NCBI GenBank assembly: GCA_964399735.1
Contig: CAYNSO010000002.1
Span: forward strand, 77,440 to 141,439
Origin: an uncultured Cytophagia bacterium
GTDB lineage: Bacteria > Zhuqueibacterota > Zhuqueibacteria > Residuimicrobiales > Krinioviventaceae
Direction: 5' to 3'
DNA: 64,000 bases
Shown here in pieces: positions 1 through 52,452 of the stretch. Both the position numbers and the translations under genes were made by a program. The notes beneath the pieces are model-generated. The model made no database searches, had not been told where the DNA came from, and saw only the letters and a list, made by a program, of their open reading frames with translations. Within the stretch, counting starts at the first letter, position 1; each line of letters starts with the position of its first letter.

Positions 1-2940
1 ATATTACAAACTCCGTTATAAACCGGATTCGGGTAGCAATAGGCTTTTTTCTCCGGCAATAATCCTGCACCGGATATAACCCTGGCATGCGCGCCGGCAA
101 GGGCAAAAGTATTGGCCGAATTACCGCCATATTGTAACCACCTGGTTTCACTCCCGCTTTTCAAATCCAGGTTCCAGGCATACAGGCAACCATCACCACT
201 AAGGGTCAGACACTCCAGGTCATTATCCTTATCGATATCGAGCAACAAGGGCGTCGCGGCAATTCCTGTTCCGGCAGTTAATGGGAAACCCGCTATTGCA
301 CGCGTTTTACTGTTCACAGCCCGGATCATGCCGTCGGCGGCGGGAATAAAAATAACCGGGCCCAAAGAAGGCTCGCTTAATGATAACAGAGAAGGGGCAT
401 TGGCTTGTTCGCCGCCGTTAGCGTTAATCATTACCGGGAAATTGGTTGCTAAAAGTCCGTTATATTTAAGAGCATGCAAGTACTTGCCACTGGTGAACAG
501 TACTTCCGGCAAACCGTCGTTATCGGCATCACCAATCGCCGGGGGACTAGTGATAACCGCGCCGGCTAGTTTTCTGTAATATAAAAGTTCACTATTGTTA
601 TAAATTGCATAATCACCGCCGCTGCCAAGAACAATCGTTTCATATCTACCATTGCCATTGAAATCGGCATTGACAACATAATAGCGGGATGCGGAAAATG
701 GTAATAAAGCTTGCCAGATCGTTGTTAACGATAAATCCATGCCAACAAGCTGTCCATTCTTTGTAACTGCAATTATTACTGGCGCATTGGCAAGACTGGA
801 GAATTGACAGGCAAGTCCGCAAACAGCTCCGGATTGCAAATCAGTTTGTTGTTGAGAATATAACTCACCATTAACCTGCAGTTTAATCACTTGACCGTCC
901 GCAGCGCCGACAATGATAGCCGGAACTCCATTGCTGCCGTTAACGATCATTGGTCCTGCGGTCGGTTTGGCGATGATATTAGCGGTTGCAAACAGATCGG
1001 CACGACCATCCTGATTTGCATCGACTGTTTTCCAGATATTAATAATACCGCGGTTATCAGCAACAACCACTTTATCGCTGCCGTCGCCATCAAGATCGGC
1101 AATTGCAGGAGGCAGCAATACCGAATCTGTGCAAGAAGCAAATAAAGCATAATCGCGGGTTACCGCAGAACCATACACATCATGAACATCCTGTATTTCA
1201 TTATTGGCAATAATTTTTTCGCCATTATATTTCCATCCCAGTACATGGCCGGCCAGGGATACTGCAATAACGCCCTGCTCGTTGCCGGCAAGAGCGACTG
1301 GCTTAAGAGCGCCGCTGGCAAATCCGGTTCCGGCATATTGCGGAAATCCAGCCTGCGCCAGATCGGAGCGCAACGAAAATGTCATAACCGAGTCATTGGC
1401 GCTAATGTTGTAAAGATTGATATGGGTAATTGCGCCTTGATAACCATTGCTGTTGGGAACAGTTCGCGCTGAAAAAGCTACGGTATCGGCATCATTATTT
1501 ACAATTTTATGAGAAATATTACCGGACCAGAAAGGATCAAAATAATCACCAGATTCCGTACCGGAACCGGGTTCAAACATTCCATAATAATAACCGATAT
1601 CCTGTGCGCCATCGCATTCAACCAGATCTACACCGCGATGCTCACGGTTTTGGTTAACCTTATTGGAAGCCAGGTTTTCGGCAATAACATCTTCATCAAT
1701 ATGCCAGATCAGCAGCCCTGAACCAGGCAAGCCAAAATCATATTCATCAATCGAAGTAATAACCCGCATAGCAGCATCAACGACTACGCTGCCAAGGCTG
1801 TCGAATTGAGCGCGAGAGCCATCAATACCGCGTCCAAACGTAACTCCATCTTTATTATGATCTTTTTGCCGGTTTTCAACCAGAAAATATTCCCGGGCGG
1901 TGATCGGTATTTTATAAATATGCGGCGCCGATTTGGATTTGGAGTCGCCTATCCTGACATTTTCGCCGCTCGTAATCACCACGGGTTCTTCCCAACCCAT
2001 ATAAATTTTTGTCCAGGCGCAGGGTTCGGCAGGTATAAGGCCATAGAAATTATACGAGCCCTGATCCATCAACCCCCAACGACCGATTCCGGCGCTACCG
2101 TCGATGGTATTATACAGACTTGGCATTCCCAGTTGACTGCCCATTAGCAGGGTCATGGTGCCGAATAAACCCAATACCTGATCTTCCTGGTTTTGCATTT
2201 CCGGCAGAATGATTCCTTCTTTGATATAAACATTATTACCGACGTCGATGCCTTGATAGCCATCAAGGTCTTTGCCGAGTGTTTCCAGCAATGTTTCATA
2301 GTCAATAAATACGGATTGTATATCATAGGGAGTTGCATCGAAATCAAAAGCAAAATCACTGCCAACTCCGGCATGAAAAACAATAACAGCATCATAACGG
2401 GAAAAATCAGGATGATCTTGTTCCTTCGCCAATGTAATCACATCGCGCAATAATTCAGCCCAGCGTTGTTTCTTCAATTCATCATTTTCCTGGCCGCTAT
2501 AATATACCATATTTTGCGGCAGGTTATAGACTTGCAACTCAGCTTCAGGCAATACATCGGCTTCAATAATTAAACGGCCGCGTGAAACTTGTTTGAAATA
2601 ATTACTTAACCCCTGTAAATGCTGTTGAAAGTAGGCGCGATCATGCGGCGGGCGATCAATAACATAATTGCTGGTGGTGGAAAGATCAAACAAACCGTTG
2701 CCGGTAGTGGTTGCCAGGTTATCTTGTACAAATTCAGCCCGCAATGCCAGCACTCGTACAGTATCCGGCCTTGATAATAAAGAATTCTGTGTCACTCCAG
2801 TTTGATAATTATGAACAACCTGTAATGGGTCTATACTTGTTGCACGAGAATGAAACTGTGACGGGTTGGCGGCAAACGTGAGGATTGAAAATAATGAAAC
2901 AAAGCCGACAATGATTACAATTAGCAAATATTTTCGCATA
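1..2940 (-). CDS. T9SS-secreted FG-GAP/VCBS-repeat protein with N-terminal immune-inhibitor-A (M6)-like domain; partial, C-terminus continues beyond window start
   Basis: Continuous minus-strand reading frame from ATG at 2940 to position 1, absent from the ORF track because it has no stop in the window. Signal peptide MRKYLLIVIIVGFVSLFSILTFA. The central region GSAGIGRWGLMDQGSYN...PCAWTKIYMGWEEP matches the InhA/M6 pattern G.W.LM..GS...P..AW.K..GW, but the expected HExxH..LPDxYD is GTMTLLMGSQLGMPSLYNT. The distal half carries FG-GAP/VCBS repeats (DLDGDGSDKVVV, DFNGNGRYETIVLG, DADNDGLPEVLF). The last in-window residues CYPNPVYNGV look like the start of a T9SS C-terminal sorting domain. Confidence 0.7.
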
Positions 2941-3097
2941 CTGTTTTCCAGAGAAAAATGATAATATCATCCACCATACCGGAAACAATGTTAATTATTT
3001 TCCAGATGGATATGATCTGCCGGGTTTAAAAAATACAGATAATGTAAAGGTAAAGGCTTGCCATTTGGCAGTCCTTTACCTTTAACACAAAATCCTC

Positions 3098-4195
3098 TTA
3101 AAAGCCCAGTGTCAGGGAAAAACGCATGGTGTTAGACAGGGGGTGCCCCTCTGCTGCGTTTACATAACCAAAATCAAAACGATACATGTTGTATTGTATA
3201 CCGGCGCCAAAAGAAGTAAAGTTGACTTTGCCGGGTTCATCCCAATAATAACCGGCGCGCAAGGCAAAAAGATTGCTGTACCAGTATTCCACACCGCCGC
3301 TTAATATGCCGTTAAAAAGTTTCTTTTCGCCGGTAACTTTTTGATCGGCGCTGCCGATATTTTTAGTTTCTTTTTCCACAACAGTCCACGGCGAAGTAAA
3401 CAAAGCCTTGTACCATGAGTCTGAAGTGCCATCGGAGTATCTTTTAACCATGAGGTGGTTTAAATCGCCAACCAGGGTTAATTTATTATATTCATCTTCA
3501 ATAATTCTATAAGCAAAACCGATTTTGAGATTGGTCGGGATCGGGTCGGCCTGTGATGCGTCAATATAAGTAATTTTGGGGCCCAAATTGGAAAGATTGA
3601 CGCCAAGGCTTAATTTCTTTAAAAATGGAGTATGGTACAAGGCAGCCAGATCGAATGAAAACGCATTAGCCCGGCCATCGCCTTTTTCAGCGCCGGCGCC
3701 AATTGGCGACAAGTTGGAACGGATATAGCGTAAACCCAAACCAACCCCAAGATCTTCATTCAACTTGGTTCCAAAAGTACCGGAAATTGCAAATTCATTA
3801 CTGGTAAATTTATCAATTACTTCCGGGCCGGATTCCAATGTTACGCTTTGTTCGCCAAGATTTAAATAGGTAATATTGAAACCAACTGTACCAATACCTT
3901 CAAAAGATTGCCGGTACGCGCCAAATTCATAAAACAAGTCGGAACCAAATTGTGGCAGCCAGTTGGCATGCATTAGTGATATTTCCCGTCCCTGCTGAAA
4001 AGCCAAACCTGCAGGATTCCAGAAAACAGCAGTAGCATCATCGGCAAGAGCCACAAATGCTTCACCCATACCGGCAGCGCGGGCGCCGGGGGAAATCATT
4101 AAAAACAGCACGGCTGCCTCGCTTACTGCGTATACTTGTGCAAAAGAAAATAATAGCATAAATATACAAATTAAAGTAATAAACAGCTTTTTCAT
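3098..4195 (-). CDS. PorV/PorQ-family outer-membrane beta-barrel protein (type IX secretion associated)
   Basis: 365 aa with signal peptide and the signature SPGARAAGMGEAFVALADDATAVFWNPAGLA. Alternating beta-strand pattern ends in a C-terminal aromatic residue (TLGF). Stop lies next to a poly-A tract. Confidence 0.6.
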   Translation of the reverse strand: MKKLFITLICIFMLLFSFAQVYAVSEAAVLFLMISPGARAAGMGEAFVALADDATAVFWNPAGLAFQQGREISLMHANWLPQFGSDLFYEFGAYRQSFEGIGTVGFNITYLNLGEQSVTLESGPEVIDKFTSNEFAISGTFGTKLNEDLGVGLGLRYIRSNLSPIGAGAEKGDGRANAFSFDLAALYHTPFLKKLSLGVNLSNLGPKITYIDASQADPIPTNLKIGFAYRIIEDEYNKLTLVGDLNHLMVKRYSDGTSDSWYKALFTSPWTVVEKETKNIGSADQKVTGEKKLFNGILSGGVEYWYSNLFALRAGYYWDEPGKVNFTSFGAGIQYNMYRFDFGYVNAAEGHPLSNTMRFSLTLGF

Positions 4196-4519: not shown

Positions 4520-5881
4520 TTAAACTGCGGCTTGTCGCAAAAGTTCCTGCATGGATTTAATATAATAATCCAACTCTTCGCGGGTTCGCTTTTCAGTTAC
4601 AGTACATAGATAACAATTATCGAGCCGCAAAAATTTATCGCGCAAAGAAATTCCGGCAAATATCTTTTTTTTCAGCATCTGGTCGAGAATATTATCGACA
4701 GAATATTCAGGGGCAATTTCAATAACAAATTCTTTAAACCAGGGCTGGGCAAATTTTACCTTTAATCCTTCAATTGCAGATAACTGTTGCGCCAGGTAAT
4801 GACTTTTTTGCAGGCATAAATTGGCAACTGCCGGTAAACCGATTTTGCCCATCAACGACATATAAACCGTAGCAGCCAGTGCATTCAATCCTTGATTTGT
4901 ACAAATGTTCGAAGTTGCCTTTTCCCTGCGAATATGCTGTTCCCGGGTTTGCAATGTAAGCACATAGCCGGTTTTACCATTCTTGTCTTCAGTTTGACCT
5001 ACAATTCGTCCCGGCATAAAACGTACCAGTTCTTTTTTAACAGCGAACAAACCCAGGTATGGGCCGCCAAAACTGACAGGGTTGCCAAGCGCTTGTCCTT
5101 CTCCGGTTACAATATCGGCTCCATAAACGCCTGGCGGTTCCAAAATAGCCAAAGAAATGGGATCGTTGGAGGTGACGTACAATGCACCGTGCTTGTGAAC
5201 GAGTTCTGAAATCTCAAAAACTTGTTCAAGGCATCCGAAATAATTGGGGTGCTGAATGATTACTGCGGCAGTTTTTTCGGAAAGGTGTTTCTCCAGGTCT
5301 TGCAGATCCAAAACACCGTCTTGCCAATCAATTGTGCGAATGATTATTTCGCGCCCTTGAGTATAAGTTTTGATAACCTGCAAATAATTTGGATTAATCG
5401 TCGCTGCAACAAGGATTTCCTTGCGCCCGGTAAACCCGCAAGCTAACAACGCAGCTTCTGCCAGGGCTGAGCCGCCATCATATACGGAAGCGTTGGCAAC
5501 ATCCATACCGGTAAGCTCGCAAATCATGGTCTGGAATTCATAAATACATTGCAAGGTACCCTGGCTGACTTCAGGTTGATACGGCGTATATGCTGTGTAA
5601 AATTCAGGGCGTGAAATAATATGTTTAACAGCCGCAGGAATAAAATGATCATAAGCGCCGCCGCCTAAAAAACAGAGATTATCATCGCAATTGGCATTCT
5701 GTGCCGCCAAACCGCTTAAATGTTTCATCACTTCCATTTCGGATAATGGAGCCGGTAACTTTAATTCACCTTGAAACAATAGTTCGGCGGGGATATTACC
5801 GATCAAGTCAGTAAAAGAATGAATGCCAATTTTTTCAAACATTTCCTGTCGATCGGCTTGTGTATTGGGAACAAAACCCAT
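4520..5881 (-). CDS. gcvPA: glycine dehydrogenase (decarboxylating) subunit 1
   Basis: 453 aa. Characteristic GcvPA N-terminus (ADRQEMFEKIGI...GELKLPAPLSEMEVMKHL) and the PEVSQG...YEFQTMICELTGMDVANASVYDG region. Confidence 0.9.
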   Translation of the reverse strand: MGFVPNTQADRQEMFEKIGIHSFTDLIGNIPAELLFQGELKLPAPLSEMEVMKHLSGLAAQNANCDDNLCFLGGGAYDHFIPAAVKHIISRPEFYTAYTPYQPEVSQGTLQCIYEFQTMICELTGMDVANASVYDGGSALAEAALLACGFTGRKEILVAATINPNYLQVIKTYTQGREIIIRTIDWQDGVLDLQDLEKHLSEKTAAVIIQHPNYFGCLEQVFEISELVHKHGALYVTSNDPISLAILEPPGVYGADIVTGEGQALGNPVSFGGPYLGLFAVKKELVRFMPGRIVGQTEDKNGKTGYVLTLQTREQHIRREKATSNICTNQGLNALAATVYMSLMGKIGLPAVANLCLQKSHYLAQQLSAIEGLKVKFAQPWFKEFVIEIAPEYSVDNILDQMLKKKIFAGISLRDKFLRLDNCYLCTVTEKRTREELDYYIKSMQELLRQAAV

Positions 5882-5901
5882 AAAAACCTCAAATTTACAA
5901 A

Positions 5902-6279
5902 TTACTTGCTTTTATTTTTGTATGCTTCGGCGGTTAACAGATTATTTAATTCTGATTCTGCGGTCATTTTAATTTTAATCATCCAGCCTTCGCCATAGGG
6001 GTCCTTGTTTACAATTTCCGGTGCAGAATTAAGTTTGGAATTCACTTCAATAATGGTGCCGGAGACTGGCGCAAAAAGATCGGAAACCGCTTTAACAGCC
6101 TCGATCGTACCAAAAGCATCCATCTGGTTCACAGCTGTATTGGTTTGTGGCAATTCAATAAAAACAATATCGCCCAGTTCTCCCTGTGCGTAATCGGTAA
6201 TGCCGACTGTAACTGTGTCGCCATTTACAGCAACCCATTCATGTTCTTCGGTATACTTGAAATTTTCAGGAACAAGCAT
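5902..6279 (-). CDS. gcvH: glycine cleavage system H protein
   Basis: EHEWV...GITDYAQ...IEAVKAVSDLFAPVSG lipoyl-lysine region. The preferred start is the internal Met MLVPENFKY, which is preceded by AAGGAGGA. The ORF-track start at 6306 would overlap accC. Confidence 0.85.
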   Translation of the reverse strand: MLVPENFKYTEEHEWVAVNGDTVTVGITDYAQGELGDIVFIELPQTNTAVNQMDAFGTIEAVKAVSDLFAPVSGTIIEVNSKLNSAPEIVNKDPYGEGWMIKIKMTAESELNNLLTAEAYKNKSK

Positions 6280-6289
6280 GTTATCCTCC

Positions 6290-7636
6290 TTAAAAATTAA
6301 AATCAAAATTTTCCAGGAATTTAGTATTAAAATGTCCTGAACGAAAATCTTTATTGGTTAGTATTTTTTTATGTAACGGTATAGTTGTTGAAATTCCTTC
6401 TATAATAAATTCGTCCAGTGCGCGCATCATTCTGACGATTGCTTCTTCACGATCTTTGCCAAAAGTGATCAGCTTTGCAACAAGAGAATCATAAAATGGC
6501 GGAATGACATATTGATCATAAGCGTGAGTATCTACCCGCACACCCAAACCACCGGGGACATGAAAACTGGTAATTTTACCGGGCGAGGGGCGAAAATCTT
6601 TGGCCGGGTCTTCTGCATTAATACGGCATTCGATTGCATGACCGCGTAGTTTAAATTTTTTCATTTCCGGGTCGATTTTTTCATTGGCTGCCACCCGTAT
6701 TTGTTCTTTGATCAGATCAATACCAAACACCGATTCTGATACCGGATGCTCAACCTGAATTCTGGTATTCATTTCCATAAAATAAAAACGACCATCATCT
6801 TCCATAAGGAACTCGATGGTGCCGGCGCTGTTATAGCCAACTTTTTCAGCGCCTTTGATAGCGGCGGCATTCATTGCCTTGCGCACTTCGGGGGTTACAG
6901 CCGGTGAGGGCGATTCTTCAATCAATTTTTGATGTTTTCGTTGGATTGAACACTCGCGTTCGCCCAAAGAAATGATATTGCCATAATTATCACCCAACAG
7001 TTGAATTTCAATATGCCGCGGGTTTTCAAAATATTTTTCGATGTATAAACCGGGATTACTAAAAGCCGATTTCGCTTCAGCGCCGGCAGAGTTAAAGGCA
7101 TTGGAAAAATCATCGGCGTTACGAACCACGCGCATTCCCCTGCCGCCACCGCCAGCTGTGGCTTTAATAATTACCGGGTAGCCAATTTCAGTGGCTATTT
7201 TTAAGCCGGTTGTAATATCTTTAACTACGCCTTCAGAACCGGGAATTACCGGTACACCGGCGCTTTTCATAGTATCTTTGGCAAAAGATTTATCGCCCAT
7301 TTTGGTTATAACCTGAGGATCGGGGCCGATAAAACGTATATTACATGAATTACATACTTCGGCAAAATGAGCATTTTCAGCCAAAAAACCATACCCGGGG
7401 TGAATAGCGTCGGCATTGGTTATTTCGGCGGCGCTGATAAGATGCGGAATGTTTAAATAACTGGCGCTACTGGGCCCCGGACCAATACACACTGCGGTAT
7501 CGGCAAAATGGACATGCAAGCTATCGACATCCGGCTCACTATACACTGCCACTGTTTCAACATTTAATTCTTTACAGGCACGGATAATCCGTAACGCTAT
7601 TTCTCCCCTGTTGGCAATTAGTATTCTTTTAAACAA
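6290..7636 (-). CDS. accC: acetyl-CoA carboxylase biotin carboxylase subunit
   Basis: 448 aa. [25 protein letters not shown]..., ATP-grasp motifs and the [14 protein letters not shown] segment. Confidence 0.92.
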
Positions 7637-26792: not shown

Positions 26793-28244
26793 TTAATCCA
26801 CAAATGGATACCTTACATTCAAATTACGCGCAGCCAGGGCTTCATTGAGCCGCGAAACAGGTGTTGTTTGCGGAGCGTCTTTTAAAAGATCAGGAGTCTG
26901 TTCAGCTTCCTGAGCAATTTTAACTAAAATATCGGCAAACCGTTCCAGCGTCTCTTTACTTTCTGTCTCGGTAGGTTCAATCATCAATGCCTCAGAAACA
27001 ATCAATGGAAAGTATACCGTCGGAGCATGGACACCATAATCTAAAAGACGCTTGGCAATATCCAGTGTTTTAACACCAAACTTTTTTTGCCGGTCACCGG
27101 ATAACACAAACTCATGCATCGGTGTAGTTTTGTAAGGTAAATCGTAATAATCCCGAACCAGAGATAACAAATAATTGGCATTGATCAAAGCGTTTTCACT
27201 TGCCTGCCGCAACCCTCTGGCTCCCAGCATGCGAATATAAGTATAAGCACGAATGATAATAGCAAAGTTCCCTAAAAAAGAACTCACTTTGCCAATACTT
27301 GCTGTAAATTCACAAACGCGAGAAAAACCCTGCTCATTGCTTTTCACACAGGGAGAAGGCAAATAGGCACATAAACGTTTGGAAACGCCAACAGGGCCTG
27401 ACCCCGGCCCACCACCGCCGTGCGGTGTGGAAAAAGTTTTGTGAAGATTAAAATGGACCACGTCAAAGCCCAAATCTCCGGGACGCACAATACCCAACAA
27501 AGCGTTTAAATTGGCGCCATCCATATACATCAAACCTCCTGCTTCATGAACAAGGCGGCTGATTTCTGCAACCCGGGTTTCAAATATACCCAGAGTGTTG
27601 GGGTTGGTTAGCATTAAAGCCGCGGTATTGTTGTCAAGATGCGCTTTCAAGTCCTCCAGATCGACAAGACCCTTGTCATTGGATTTTATTTGCACAGCCT
27701 GCAATCCGGCAATAGAAACACTGGCCGGATTTGTGCCATGCGCCGAATCAGGGATTAACACAATTTTACGATCACTGCCTTGCGCTTTGAGAAAAGCTTT
27801 GATCATCATCAAACCGGTCAATTCGCCGTGAGCGCCGGCAGAAGGCTGCAAAGTTACTGCCGCAAGACCGGAAACCTGGCAAAGATACTCTGCCATTTCA
27901 AACAATAGCTGTAAAGCTCCCTGCACAGTAGCATCCGGCTGGTGTGGGTGCAGCGACGAGAATCCCTTTAGTCCCTGGGTTTCTTCATTTATCTTGGGGT
28001 TATATTTCATAGTGCAGGAACCCAATGGATAAAAATCTTTATCCACATGATGATTAAGAGTGGAAAGGTTAACAAAATGCCTTACCACCTCAGCTTCACT
28101 CACCTGGGGCAAACGGGCTGCATTCTTTCGCTGATGCTTTTCCGGTATTAACTCACTGATATTGACTAGCGGCACATCTACATCTGGAAGACTGGCCCCA
28201 ATTCTGCCGTTTGAACCCATTTCAAAAATCAGTTTTCTAAACAT
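26793..28244 (-). CDS. gcvPB: glycine dehydrogenase (decarboxylating) subunit 2
   Basis: 483 aa. PLP-dependent; [22 protein letters not shown] with PLP-Lys context. Typical GcvPB N-terminus. Confidence 0.9.
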
Positions 28245-48347: not shown

Positions 48348-49028
48348 TCAACCTAAAACCCGCAGAATACGTTCAGTATCCTGCAGATTGGTAAATAAAT
48401 AATCGGGATCATGCTGCTGCAGCTGCTCCATTGAGTAACTACTTGTGGCAACAGCAATTGAAACCGCGCCATGCGGCTTGGCGCATTTAATATCCGAAGG
48501 GGTATCACCAATAACATATACCTGGTCGGGTGCAGGATGAATATGATAAATATCTGTAAAGCGCCGGACGGCAAAAGGCAGCAACTCTTCGCGTACGCCG
48601 GAATCATCGGCAAAGGCGCCGAAACGGAAATAATTGTTCAAATCAAAATGACCAATTTTAATACGGCCGCTGGTTTCCCAGTTACCGGTTAGCAAACCCA
48701 GGTACACATCTTGACGTTTAGCCAACAGCGGTAACAGGTCGCTGATACCGGGCATCAATGCTTTACCGTTACCGGGCGCTTGAATCTCTTTTTCAAGCAA
48801 CTTGAAGTAAACAGTTTTATAATAATCGAAACGCTCCTGATTCCAAGTCACACCGGTTTCATTCAAAGCGTCAATTAATATTGAAGTATCTGTACGGCCG
48901 GCCAGGTTGATATGCAACAAGGCATCTTTAACTCCAAAAACCTGAAAAAAGGCCTCATTCATAGCCCGCAAACCGGCTCCGCCGCTCAACATCAAGGTGC
49001 CGTCAATATCAAAAAGCAATACTTTCAC
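48348..49028 (-). CDS. HAD-IA family hydrolase (phosphatase)
   Basis: Motif I FDIDGTL, motif II LTGN, and C-terminal GDTPSD. Confidence 0.8.
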   Translation of the reverse strand: MKVLLFDIDGTLMLSGGAGLRAMNEAFFQVFGVKDALLHINLAGRTDTSILIDALNETGVTWNQERFDYYKTVYFKLLEKEIQAPGNGKALMPGISDLLPLLAKRQDVYLGLLTGNWETSGRIKIGHFDLNNYFRFGAFADDSGVREELLPFAVRRFTDIYHIHPAPDQVYVIGDTPSDIKCAKPHGAVSIAVATSSYSMEQLQQHDPDYLFTNLQDTERILRVLG

Positions 49029-49146
49029 GTGTGGTTTTCCAAAAATAATTTTCTAAATGTTTATCTGTATGCGTAAATCAGTGCGTTGATATACATTATA
49101 CACTTTTTTACCACTTATTATTCATAAATTAAGGCTTGCATAACTA

Positions 49147-49350
49147 TCACATAAAGCGGCGCACCAGACTGATCAACGCCTGAATGATCGGCCAGGCGAA
49201 CAGAATGATCATCAACAGAGCTACCCATTTTACAGGGGATTTCTGATGCGGGAACTCGTACCCGCAGATCGGGCAAGCCGGGCTCTTTTTATCAACCATC
49301 ATCGCACAGGATGGACATTCTTTTTGTGACACGTGCTCTCCTTTAAACAA
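49147..49350 (-). CDS. hypothetical zinc-ribbon membrane protein
   Basis: 67 aa with two CxxC pairs (CPSC...CPIC) followed by one transmembrane helix. AAGGAGAG is followed by a possible GTG start at 49332. Confidence 0.45.
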   Translation of the reverse strand: MFKGEHVSQKECPSCAMMVDKKSPACPICGYEFPHQKSPVKWVALLMIILFAWPIIQALISLVRRFM

Positions 49351-49453
49351 GTAATAAAATACACAACTTGCAGCAAATTATCAAGCTGAAAGAAAACTAC
49401 CGGCGTTGTAATAATTTCAGAAATATTATTTATGCGGGAGTTGCGAACAAGTG

Positions 49454-49482
49454 TTGACAATCCGAAAACTATTTAATATATT
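49454..49482 (+). promoter_or_regulatory. sigma70-like promoter (TTGACA-17-TATATT) upstream of selenoprotein gene
   Basis: -35 TTGACA at 49454-49459, a 17-nt spacer, and -10 TATATT at 49477-49482. About 115 nt upstream of the ATG at 49598. Confidence 0.4.
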
Positions 49483-49597
49483 GACACGTTGGTAAATCAG
49501 CAGCAAAAGCATGCAATTAATCGCTGCTCCATAATACAGCAACTACTGTGTTCTTTTGCCCGATAAATAAAGAGTTACACCAAAAAAAGGATGACTG

Positions 49598-49813
49598 ATG
49601 AAGGTTTCGATTGAATATTGTACTATGTGAAACTATTACCCCCAGGCAGCCAGGCTGGCTGCGGAAATTGAAAACAAATATCATATTAAAGTTACCCTTA
49701 TCAAGTCGGGAGGCGGAGTGTTTCAAGTGCGCAAGGATGATGCACTGATTTTTTCCAAGCAAGCAACCGGACGTTTTCCCGAAACAAGCGAAATTTTTAT
49801 AAAACTGGGATAA
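49598..49813 (+). CDS. SelW/Rdx-family selenoprotein (in-frame TGA = selenocysteine, CxxU motif)
   Basis: ATG at 49598 preceded by AAGGA. The frame reads MKVSIEYCTM-TGA(49628-49630)-NYYPQAARLAAEIENKYHIKVTLIKSGGGVFQVRKDDALIFSKQATGRFPETSEIFIKLG* with TAA at 49811. It matches the Rdx/SelW fold pattern (IEYCxxU/C...L.....e....v.L....GG.FeV..dg.liwsk...grFPe..e). No alternative start exists downstream of the TGA. A hairpin follows 16 nt after the TGA. The ORF track shows nothing on the + strand and only a spurious antisense ORF here. Confidence 0.7.
49646..49662 (+). promoter_or_regulatory. candidate bacterial SECIS-like hairpin downstream of the UGA codon
   Basis: GCAGCCA-GGC-TGGCTGC is a perfect 7-bp stem with a G-rich apical loop. 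It starts 16 nt after the TGA, at the spacing expected for SelB-dependent recoding. Confidence 0.45.
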
Positions 49814-49825
49814 GACCGGATTTTT

Positions 49826-50866
49826 ATGTCATTAACGATTCAAGAAAACCTGCAAGCAGCAGAAAAATTAATGATTCAGGGGAAAACAAAACAGGCCTGT
49901 CTGTTACTTGAGCAATTATCAACAGAAAATCCCGATAATATAACCATTCAGACGCTAACAGCCCGTTCTTATCTGGCATTGGGAAATACCGAACAAGCGT
50001 ATAAAATTTACACGCCGCTGTCCATCGCTTCGAGGCCGGAATATGCCGAGGCTCGCCCGGAAGCGCTGTTGGCGCTGGGTAAATACAAAGCCGCCCTGCA
50101 TGATTACGAAGCATACTTTAAACGTTCCGGCGAAGTATTGTTTCTTGCCGCCCTGGCTGCCTATAAATGCGGTGTAATTGTCAAAGCCAGGTTGTTGCTT
50201 AAACAGGCGGTAAGCAGACAATATGAATGGAATGAAAATACATTGGCAGATGCGTTGGTACTGCATGTTTTACCGGGGTTTGAATTTATGGATTTTGAAC
50301 AACTGTATCTCGATGCGGTTGAGCAGGTTGAAAATCCAACAGATAATTATAACAACCGCTGGATGTCAATCAGCATACCTGTATTTGAATTCTTGCAAAA
50401 TCCGGCACAGAAAAAACAAAATATGTCACAACTACTGAATTTATTGGGTACAACCGAGTTTACTGCGGTTTTTGAGAACGGCAAAACCGAACTGGAAAAC
50501 ATGTTGCAGGAAATGACCGATCTGGAAACCGATGCCCGTTTTGGTCTGGAAGCGTTAAAGTTGTTGCAGGAAAACAAGTATTCTGCATTAGCCGGGCTGC
50601 TGATGGCTCTGCTGCTGGAACAAACCAGTCGAGACTGTGCGTTATTTGGTCTGGATCAAAAATTTATCAAATCTTCACAATTACAACAACTGCTGGTTGC
50701 ACTCCCCCTGGGTATCGCTACGGCGTTATTATTACTTTTCTCTATCGCCAATCCCCTCGAACAGCATCATGAACAAATACAAAAAATGGATGAAAATATA
50801 GTAACAGGTTTGTTAGTATTATGTGTTGTTACCTGTAACCGGGAAATAAAAAAGTTGCAGAACTGA
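49826..50866 (+). CDS. hypothetical protein with N-terminal TPR-like helical repeats and C-terminal TM segment
   Basis: 346 aa. N-terminus is TPR-like (AEKLMIQGKTKQACLLLEQL..., LALGNTEQAYKIY). One hydrophobic helix near the C-terminus (LLVALPLGIATALLLLFSIA). Starts 13 nt after the selenoprotein stop. Confidence 0.5.
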   Translation: MSLTIQENLQAAEKLMIQGKTKQACLLLEQLSTENPDNITIQTLTARSYLALGNTEQAYKIYTPLSIASRPEYAEARPEALLALGKYKAALHDYEAYFKRSGEVLFLAALAAYKCGVIVKARLLLKQAVSRQYEWNENTLADALVLHVLPGFEFMDFEQLYLDAVEQVENPTDNYNNRWMSISIPVFEFLQNPAQKKQNMSQLLNLLGTTEFTAVFENGKTELENMLQEMTDLETDARFGLEALKLLQENKYSALAGLLMALLLEQTSRDCALFGLDQKFIKSSQLQQLLVALPLGIATALLLLFSIANPLEQHHEQIQKMDENIVTGLLVLCVVTCNREIKKLQN

Positions 50867-50901
50867 GATTCTCCAAAAAACTGAAAAAAGGAGGTTTGCT
50901 T

Positions 50902-52452
50902 ATGCTGGCCGAATTTCGCAATGAAAGTTATATGGATTTTTCCAAACCCGAACATGCACAGGCACAAAAAGAAGCGCTGCAAAAAGTAAAAGATCAGTTT
51001 GACAAAACCTGGCCCCTCTATATTGACGGCAAGGATGTTACCACCAACGCCGTGTATAAAAGTTATAATCCTTCGCGCAAGGAAGAAGTGGTCGGTACAT
51101 TTTACAAAGCCGGAAAAAAGGAAGTGGATATAGCAATGGATGCAGCATTACGGGCTTTTGAAAAATGGAAAAAAGTTGCGCCAAAAGAACGGGCGATTGT
51201 GCTGCTCAAAGCCGCGCAGATCATGCGCAAAAGGAAATATGAAATCAACGCCTGGATGATCTATGAAACCGGCAAAAGCTGGGCAGAAGCTGAGGCCGAC
51301 ACTTCGGAAGCGGTCGATTTTCTGGATTTTTACGGTCGGGAAATGATTCGCTGGAGTGAAATCAAGGGCGCCACATCGTTCCCGAATGAATACCCGGAAC
51401 AAGTCTATATTCCGCTGGGCGTGGGTGCGGCCATTCCGCCGTGGAATTTCCCCATGGCTATTCTTACCGGAATGACCACTGCCGCGATCGTCGCCGGCAA
51501 TACCGTGCTGCTCAAACCGGCCAGCGATTCTCCCGCTATTGGTTACCGCCTTGTCGAGATCATGCGCGAAGCGGGCCTGCCGGACGGTGTACTCAACTTT
51601 ATCCCCGGCAGCGGCGCAGAAATAGGCGACTATATTGTACAGCATCCGAAAACGCGTTTTATCAGCTTTACCGGCTCCAAAGAAGTGGGCTTGCGCATCA
51701 ACGAGCTGGCCAGCCGCCTTTCACCCGGCCAAATCTGGATCAAGCGGGTGATTACAGAAATGGGTGGCAAGGATACTATTGTGGTAGACAGCGAAGCCAA
51801 CCTTGAAGATGCCGCTGCAAATATCGTCGCATCAGCATTCGGTTTTCAGGGACAAAAATGCTCGGCTTGCTCGCGTGCCATTCTGGTTGAAGATATACAT
51901 GACCAGGTTTTGGAAATGGTAGTTGAACGCGCCAATAAACTCAGCGTTGGCGATGTGGAAGACCCGGCGTTTTATATGGGGCCGGTGATTAACAAGGCTT
52001 CGGAAGAGAAAATACTTTCCTATATTGACTATGGCAAAAAGAACCATAAACTGGTGGCTGGCGGCAATAAATTATCCGATAAGGGTTATTTCATTGCACC
52101 GACGGTCTTTGCCGGGGTGAATCCCGGTTCCAGACTGGATCAGGAAGAAATCTTTGGTCCTGTGCTGGCGGTACTCAAGGTGAAAAATTTTTCAGAAGCA
52201 ATACAGATAGCCAACAGTACAGAATATGGCTTGACCGGCGCAGTCTATACCAGAAATCGTTTCAAGATTGAAACGGCCAAGCAGGAATTTCATGTCGGCA
52301 ACCTGTACATTAACCGCAAATGCACCGGCGCGATGGTTGGCGCCCATCCCTTTGGCGGCTTTAACATGAGCGGCACGGACTCGAAAGCCGGCGGTCGCGA
52401 TTACCTGGGCTTGTTCATGCAAGCCAAGTCTATTAGTGAAAAGCTGCTATAA
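50902..52452 (+). CDS. rocA: L-glutamate gamma-semialdehyde (1-pyrroline-5-carboxylate) dehydrogenase
   Basis: Near-collinear with Bacillus RocA. Motifs [28 protein letters not shown] (catalytic Glu), [13 protein letters not shown] (catalytic Cys), [32 protein letters not shown]. The ATG at 50902 is preceded by GGAGG; the ORF-track start is a TTG at 50896. Confidence 0.9.

Follow-up and report, generated by a model that had tools for sequence, protein, structure and literature searches.

Bacterial SelW-like proteins with a CxxU motif have been known since 2005 (PMC1088965), and among prokaryotic selenoprotein families they were the most abundant in metagenomes from the Sargasso Sea and the GOS (PMC1088965, PMC2398784). 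The bacterial SECIS element is described as a hairpin that follows directly on the UGA and carries a G in a small apical loop (PMC1088965). The gene reported here shares with these selenoproteins a length of ∼70 to 80 amino acids, a CxxU motif at the β1-α1 junction, a predicted thioredoxin-like fold, the alternation of TGA and Cys among relatives, and a SECIS-type hairpin just past the UGA whose small apical loop carries a G. Nothing substantial sets it apart from the known members: its loop is GGC and not the commoner GUC or GUU, and its setting is an uncultured KSB1-like host, in which it lies upstream of genes for a tetratricopeptide repeat (TPR) protein and a P5C dehydrogenase.

The gene occupies positions 49598 to 49813 of the forward strand of the 64,000-nucleotide stretch of DNA that was analyzed as a whole (here called the window). 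We put the probability that it is a genuine Sec-decoding SelW-like gene at roughly 90%. Every defining feature of the SelW-like family that could be tested was found in it, and it is an unremarkable further member of that family. As the family is among the commonest and longest-known of bacterial selenoproteins, what we describe is a gene overlooked in annotation rather than a discovery.

A short reading frame with a single internal TGA

From the ATG at 49598, the conceptual frame reads MKVSIEYCTM-TGA-NYYPQAARLAAEIENKYHIKVTLIKSGGGVFQVRKDDALIFSKQATGRFPETSEIFIKLG-TAA, with 71 codons and the TAA at 49811 to 49813. A ribosome-binding site, AAGGA, can be read from the sequence at 49587 to 49591 on the same strand and is separated from the ATG by a 6-nt spacer. 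The sole internal stop of the frame is the TGA at codon 11 (49628 to 49630, forward strand), which we propose is read as Sec, given that the same column holds TGA in the homologous loci L001 and L002 and in the genome loci found by scanning and Cys in other relatives. With the three preceding codons it would form the CxxU redox motif Cys8-Thr-Met-Sec11 (49619 to 49630, forward strand), as indicated by translation and by its alignment on the CxxC motif of Rdx proteins of known structure. The start codon, the ribosome-binding site, the 71-codon frame, and the lone TGA had all been noted in an initial annotation made from the letters of the window, and their coordinates proved correct on re-reading.

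The same annotation held that no start past the TGA gives a sensible protein. The only in-frame start found there is the GTG at 49718, and its product would be a fragment of 31 amino acids. When the window outside its long genes was scanned for other TGA-interrupted ORFs, the SelW-like gene alone stood out.

Less can be said for the promoter, TTGACA-N17-TATATT, that had been proposed upstream. The sigma-70-like candidate does lie at 49454 to 49482 (forward strand), matches 11 of 12 consensus positions, and is unchanged in the strain variant L002, but such sites occur locally at the chance rate (4 found in the surrounding 1 kb versus 3.2 ± 1.9 expected), and we retain it as a sequence that may function as a promoter. 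The fold of the presumed 5′ untranslated region (49488 to 49600) is unremarkable (z = −0.65).

Family membership and predicted fold

Profile tests were run with a query carrying Cys at position 11. The Pfam model Rdx (PF10262) covers residues 2 to 67, across the TGA, with an E value of 4.8e-20 and 72 bits versus a cutoff of 22.6. The NCBIfam models NF041051, “SelT/SelW/SelH family (seleno)protein” (98.6 bits versus a cutoff of 88), and TIGR02174, “CXXU_selWTH” (53.1 bits versus a cutoff of 34.2), also matched. Judged by its sequence, which passes all three curated cutoffs, the gene product is a member of the Rdx/SelT-SelW-SelH family, and the family pattern that had been recognized by eye is thereby borne out; the predicted fold agrees. 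A profile search of the relatives led to the solved Rdx proteins 2LJK, 2FA8, 3DEX, 2OKA, 2OJL, 2P0G, and 2OBK and to mouse SelW (2NPB), and their CxxC (EYCEPCGF and RYCTQCNW; 2LJK and 2FA8) falls on the CxxU of the window protein.

The AlphaFold model (pLDDT, 97.6) predicts a thioredoxin-like fold for the window protein, with the topology β1-α1-β2-β3-β4-α2. Its predicted elements are a strand at residues 3 to 8, a helix at 14 to 28, strands at 32 to 37, 42 to 46, and 49 to 53, and a helix at 63 to 70, and the CxxU sits between the first strand and the first helix. Compared with 2FA8, 2OBK, 2OJL, 3DEX, and 2P0G, the predicted model gives a TM score of 0.92 and a root mean square deviation of 1.0 to 1.1 Å; the TM score is 0.80 to MIEN1 (2LJK) and 0.62 to mouse SelW.

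The Cys-form Rdx structures Atu0228 (2FA8), P. fluorescens (2OBK), V. cholerae (2P0G), and SAV_2001 (3DEX) are like the window protein in its predicted fold and in motif position; they differ from it in carrying CxxC instead of CxxU, in having only 24 to 35% identity to it, and in that the hairpin described below is absent from Cys-form genes. Mammalian SelW (2NPB) and MIEN1 (2LJK) share the Rdx family and the CxxU/CxxC position with the window protein, but their structural likeness to it is lower, and the eukaryotic SECIS is of another type and lies in the 3′ untranslated region, whereas the window hairpin lies within the coding sequence.

The TGA motif recurs in many phyla

The genome scans took in 185,579 genomes, each standing for one species. 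The pattern scanned for the TGA motif, ATHGARTAYTGYNNNNNNTGAAAYTAYN9GC, gave at least 120 genome matches in species representatives of many phyla, including Verrucomicrobiota, Gemmatimonadota, Planctomycetota, Desulfobacterota, Acidobacteriota, KSB1, Ignavibacteria, and others. Read-through past the TGA yielded a full-length Rdx protein in all 120 of the matches listed, and L001, a 63%-identical homolog, has its TGA at the same codon.

The UGA had been placed at the redox-center position of CxxU/CxxC proteins, and a profile alignment against PF10262 had been suggested as a way to see whether homologs carry Cys or Sec at column 11. This column is the second position of the motif, and the homologs carry either TGA or Cys there. 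TGA in some Rdx relatives and Cys in others is, at the level of sequence, the classical Sec/Cys signature.

A conserved and covarying hairpin follows the UGA

The SECIS-type hairpin lies at 49646 to 49662 on the forward strand, GCAGCCA-GGC-UGGCUGC, and was correctly identified at the outset as a perfect 7-bp stem with a GGC loop. The stem arms span 49646 to 49652 and 49656 to 49662, the loop is at 49653 to 49655, and 15 nt separate the UGA from the stem, which puts the hairpin at +18 to +34 from the U of the UGA. In single-sequence folding, the lone hairpin does not stand out from shuffled sequence in stability (z = −1.1), and the minimum-free-energy structure from RNAfold uses a register shifted by one. 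The weight of the hairpin comes from comparison across genomes and not from folding energy.

For this comparison, 120 distinct sequences were aligned without gaps over 45 nt from the TGA, with the stem in columns 19 to 25 and 29 to 35 and the loop in columns 26 to 28; columns 1 to 9 and 19 to 20 are fixed by the search pattern. Stem positions were paired in 89% of cells versus 77.6 ± 0.6% in shuffled alignments (a level reached by 0 of 500) and 20 to 53% with the 3′ arm slid, and two-sided, compensatory changes were seen in 73 cells versus 18.3 ± 3.6 in shuffles; the 120 sequences are related, so that the shuffle counts are not probabilities. Three stem pairs showed all four Watson-Crick types. 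At pair 21-33 (CG 76, GC 14, UA 9, AU 7, and UG 5 among the 120 sequences), two third-codon positions are joined, so the covariation there is not a protein constraint. A 5-bp stem core was predicted independently by RNAalifold.

The loop is constrained as well. Its first base is G in all 120 Sec forms listed versus 36 of 102 Cys forms (35%), and the loop of the Sec-form family follows G[UG]N, with U as the second base in 102 of 120. The window has GGC, a minority form without this U (9 of 120). Codon 19, in alignment columns 25 to 27 (window positions 49652 to 49654, forward strand), always has G as its second base (NGN) in the 120 Sec forms, and where it specifies Ser, only AGY is used (53 times), never UCN. 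Here the SECIS loop constrains, at the RNA level, both codon choice and the protein sequence A-x-[SGR]-L-A.

The Cys-form control consisted of 102 distinct metagenomic Rdx genes with the motif IEYCxxC[GNDS]Y..A. Sec forms averaged 6.2 of 7 stem pairs versus 3.3 of 7 for Cys forms (Mann-Whitney p = 2e-31), and at least 6 pairs formed in 85% versus 7%, in a comparison whose control represents other subfamilies from another collection and in which protein sequence and RNA structure are confounded. We also built a covariance model of the 23-nt hairpin from 118 other sequences, leaving out the window and its strain variant. Across both strands of the 64 kb, its single significant match was at 49643 to 49665 (26.5 bits, E = 0.0015), the next best scoring 12.9 bits. 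The hairpin had been called SECIS-like on its appearance, and this description gains support from its being conserved, covarying, confined to Sec forms, and uniquely hit by the leave-out model.

The SECIS of E. coli fdhF, which binds SelB, is the reference bacterial SECIS. The window hairpin resembles it in being placed inside the coding region, shortly 3′ of the UGA, and in having a G in the apical loop (usually GU), but, unlike in fdhF, no bulged U is evident. The family consensus CCRGUCUGG presumably resembles the fdhF GCAGGUCUGC, and we take the loop G to lie about one codon farther from the UGA than in fdhF (position 26 here versus G23).

The strain variant L002, from metagenome ERZ27247376, is identical to the window over 505 nt except for G49661A (L002:287). 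This change replaces Ala22 with Thr and breaks the second SECIS stem pair, from C-G to C-A.

Selenocysteine machinery and the possibility of a relic

Profile, ARAGORN, and Rfam searches agreed with the initial annotation that selA, selB, selD, and tRNA-Sec are missing from the window; none of these was found in the 64 kb or in ∼7 kb past its left end. ARAGORN detected no tRNA of any kind in the window, Rfam gave no match in it, and window ORFs of at least 317 amino acids belong to other families or have no match to selD, selA, or selB. A 693-amino-acid GTPase considered as SelB was rejected, being EF-G.

Such a locus could be an intact relic, left in a genome that has lost its Sec machinery, so that translation halts at codon 11 without giving a functional protein. 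The lack of Sec machinery in the window and its left flank fits this account, and selenoprotein loss is reportedly frequent in bacterial evolution. We nevertheless regard a relic as improbable, because the reading frame is undamaged before and after the TGA and the hairpin retains 7 of 7 pairs. In addition, the ortholog at a syntenic locus in a candidate division KSB1 MAG (L022; JAPDPN010000106.1) shares 64% identity and has retained TGA, hairpin, and open frame, with many synonymous changes (24 synonymous and 25 nonsynonymous differences over 71 codons). Most KSB1 clades are also reported to have selABD, with selA, selB, and selD found in MAGs of every clade but clade II (PMC9012183).

UGA as an ordinary codon, as a mutation, or as chance

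A word-indexed protein search returned 2 matches only, and an exhaustive search of a large public protein collection returned 152 relatives. At column 11, these database relatives hold W (83), C (30), G (13), S (6), A (3), or Y (1), and the residue is absent from 16. The W and G entries are what would be expected if UGA encoded an ordinary amino acid, either Trp or Gly (codes 4 and 25) or Cys or Trp inserted by near-cognate read-through. The two nearest database proteins store W at this column because gene callers applied code 4; the underlying DNA is TGA. That W stands for TGA was confirmed on the DNA of L001, L002, and L245, and the G entries (13 of 152) presumably represent TGA under code 25. 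By contrast with the TGA motif, a true TGG motif, obtained from a 9-sequence alignment by back-translating W, had no relative in the 185,579 genomes.

In the window itself, TGA is an ordinary stop that ends 13 of 50 long ORFs, and no TGA interrupts GcvPA, AccC, GatA, GatB, PurB, or P5CDH, each of which matches its family profile from end to end. Genome-wide reassignment of UGA (codes 4 and 25) does not fit these two observations. A plain sense codon needs no hairpin, so the pairing of the TGA with a conserved, covarying hairpin that is absent from Cys-form genes also speaks against an ordinary amino acid, and we consider that reading very unlikely.

Homologs that start past the TGA and lack the motif had been named in advance as evidence against a selenoprotein. 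Those encountered are gene-calling artifacts: in the truncated entry P0071 (L252:229-477), one of 16, whose DNA was examined, MKVTIEYCVV-TGA-NYDPQAASLAK lies in frame upstream of the called start, so that both the motif and the TGA are kept. In total, 112 of the 152 relatives are stored in a wrong form, with Trp, with Gly, or with a start past the TGA.

Another database homolog, P0012, has TGA at both motif positions. Its locus (L245:268-492) reads IEY-TGA-GGA-ATG-TGA-AAC-TAC, and the same hairpin follows with 6 of 7 pairs, on a contig of low coverage (about 2×). The UxxU pattern occurs in three database clusters (P0012, P0033, and P0092); in the GOS paper, UxxU is reported only for a Prx-like family (PMC2398784).

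Decay of a Cys-form Rdx gene is a further way to obtain this frame, since Cys forms exist in the family and a single base change turns TGC or TGT into TGA. A pseudogene is nonetheless highly improbable: the TGA stands at the same codon in the 1-nt strain variant, in the 63%-identical homolog, and in at least 120 species representatives, and the frame has no frameshifts and no further stops. We give almost no credence to the idea that the 81-amino-acid antisense ORF at 49517 to 49762, which was noted from the start and is the only conventional ORF listed at the locus, is the real gene and the sense frame fortuitous, given that the sense frame matches curated profiles (E = 1e-20 to 1e-28) and is conserved across phyla.

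Gene neighborhood

The SelW-like gene is followed on the same strand, 12 nt past its stop, by a gene for a 346-amino-acid TPR-containing protein (49826 to 50866) and then by one for L-glutamate gamma-semialdehyde (P5C) dehydrogenase (50896 to 52452), both assigned by family match. The SelW-like gene and these two downstream genes (49826 to 52452) are probably cotranscribed. Upstream, on the opposite strand, lie a zinc-ribbon ORF and genes for a HAD hydrolase, QueA, and an AIM24-family protein. The order HAD, zinc ribbon, SelW-like, 346-amino-acid TPR, and P5CDH (48348 to 52452) recurs in L022, and this shared order suggests that the window derives from a KSB1-like bacterium and that the genes for the SelW-like protein, the TPR protein, and P5CDH possibly form an operon. 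None of the other fetched genome loci with a SelW-like gene shares the L022 order.

One could go further and see in the SelW-like protein a dedicated partner of the 346-amino-acid TPR protein and the P5C dehydrogenase in KSB1-like bacteria. This proposal draws on one syntenic relative, L022, and we hold it to be unlikely.

Exact copies of window proteins (GcvPA, PorV, and LacI) occur in the Logan assemblies of SRR8925737, SRR8925738, SRR27370449, and SRR27370451, including on a 116-kb contig. T9SS genes in the window region comprise PorV and cargo with a Por_Secre_tail, in keeping with an organism of the FCB group. A long minus-strand gene (1 to 2940) starts at 2940, where it encodes the signal peptide MRKYLLIVIIVGF, and continues past the window start, which is why no ORF is listed in 580 to 3098. 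In the 116-kb Logan contig, this gene encodes a 1,053-amino-acid FG-GAP/Por_Secre_tail protein (T9SS cargo) and adjoins PorV; the site in the window is 1 to 2940 and 3098 to 4195, both on the minus strand. The glycine-cleavage genes are split between 4520 to 6290 and 26793 to 28244, again on the minus strand: gcvH and gcvPA adjoin accC/accB/efp, and a gcvPB-like gene lies 20 kb off, beside genes for a GGDEF response regulator and a histidine kinase.

Proposed decoding and significance

If the gene is decoded with Sec, the UGA at codon 11 would not be taken as a stop during translation. The hairpin at 49646 to 49662, with its small apical loop starting with G, would serve as the bacterial SECIS element and recruit SelB-GTP-Sec-tRNA(Sec) to the ribosome, Sec would be inserted, and translation would run on to the TAA at 49811. 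We infer both SelB binding and the actual insertion of Sec at codon 11 from the conserved features of the locus. The result would be a 71-residue thioredoxin-fold Rdx protein with the active site Cys8-x-x-Sec11. This product may be redox active and would be expected to function as a thiol/selenol oxidoreductase via a reversible Cys-Sec selenenylsulfide.

The locus illustrates a systematic annotation error, in which gene callers miss the gene, start it past the UGA, or put Trp or Gly in place of the UGA; the Trp and Gly calls arise when code 4 or 25 is chosen for short contigs. It also indicates that a reading of sequence alone can correctly recover selenoprotein genes. The scientific weight of the finding is small, as it adds one more SelW-like instance, from an uncultured KSB1-like lineage. 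Should the unlikely partnership with the TPR protein and P5C dehydrogenase prove true, it would connect an orphan selenoprotein family with proline/glutamate-semialdehyde catabolism, the first physiological role for that family.
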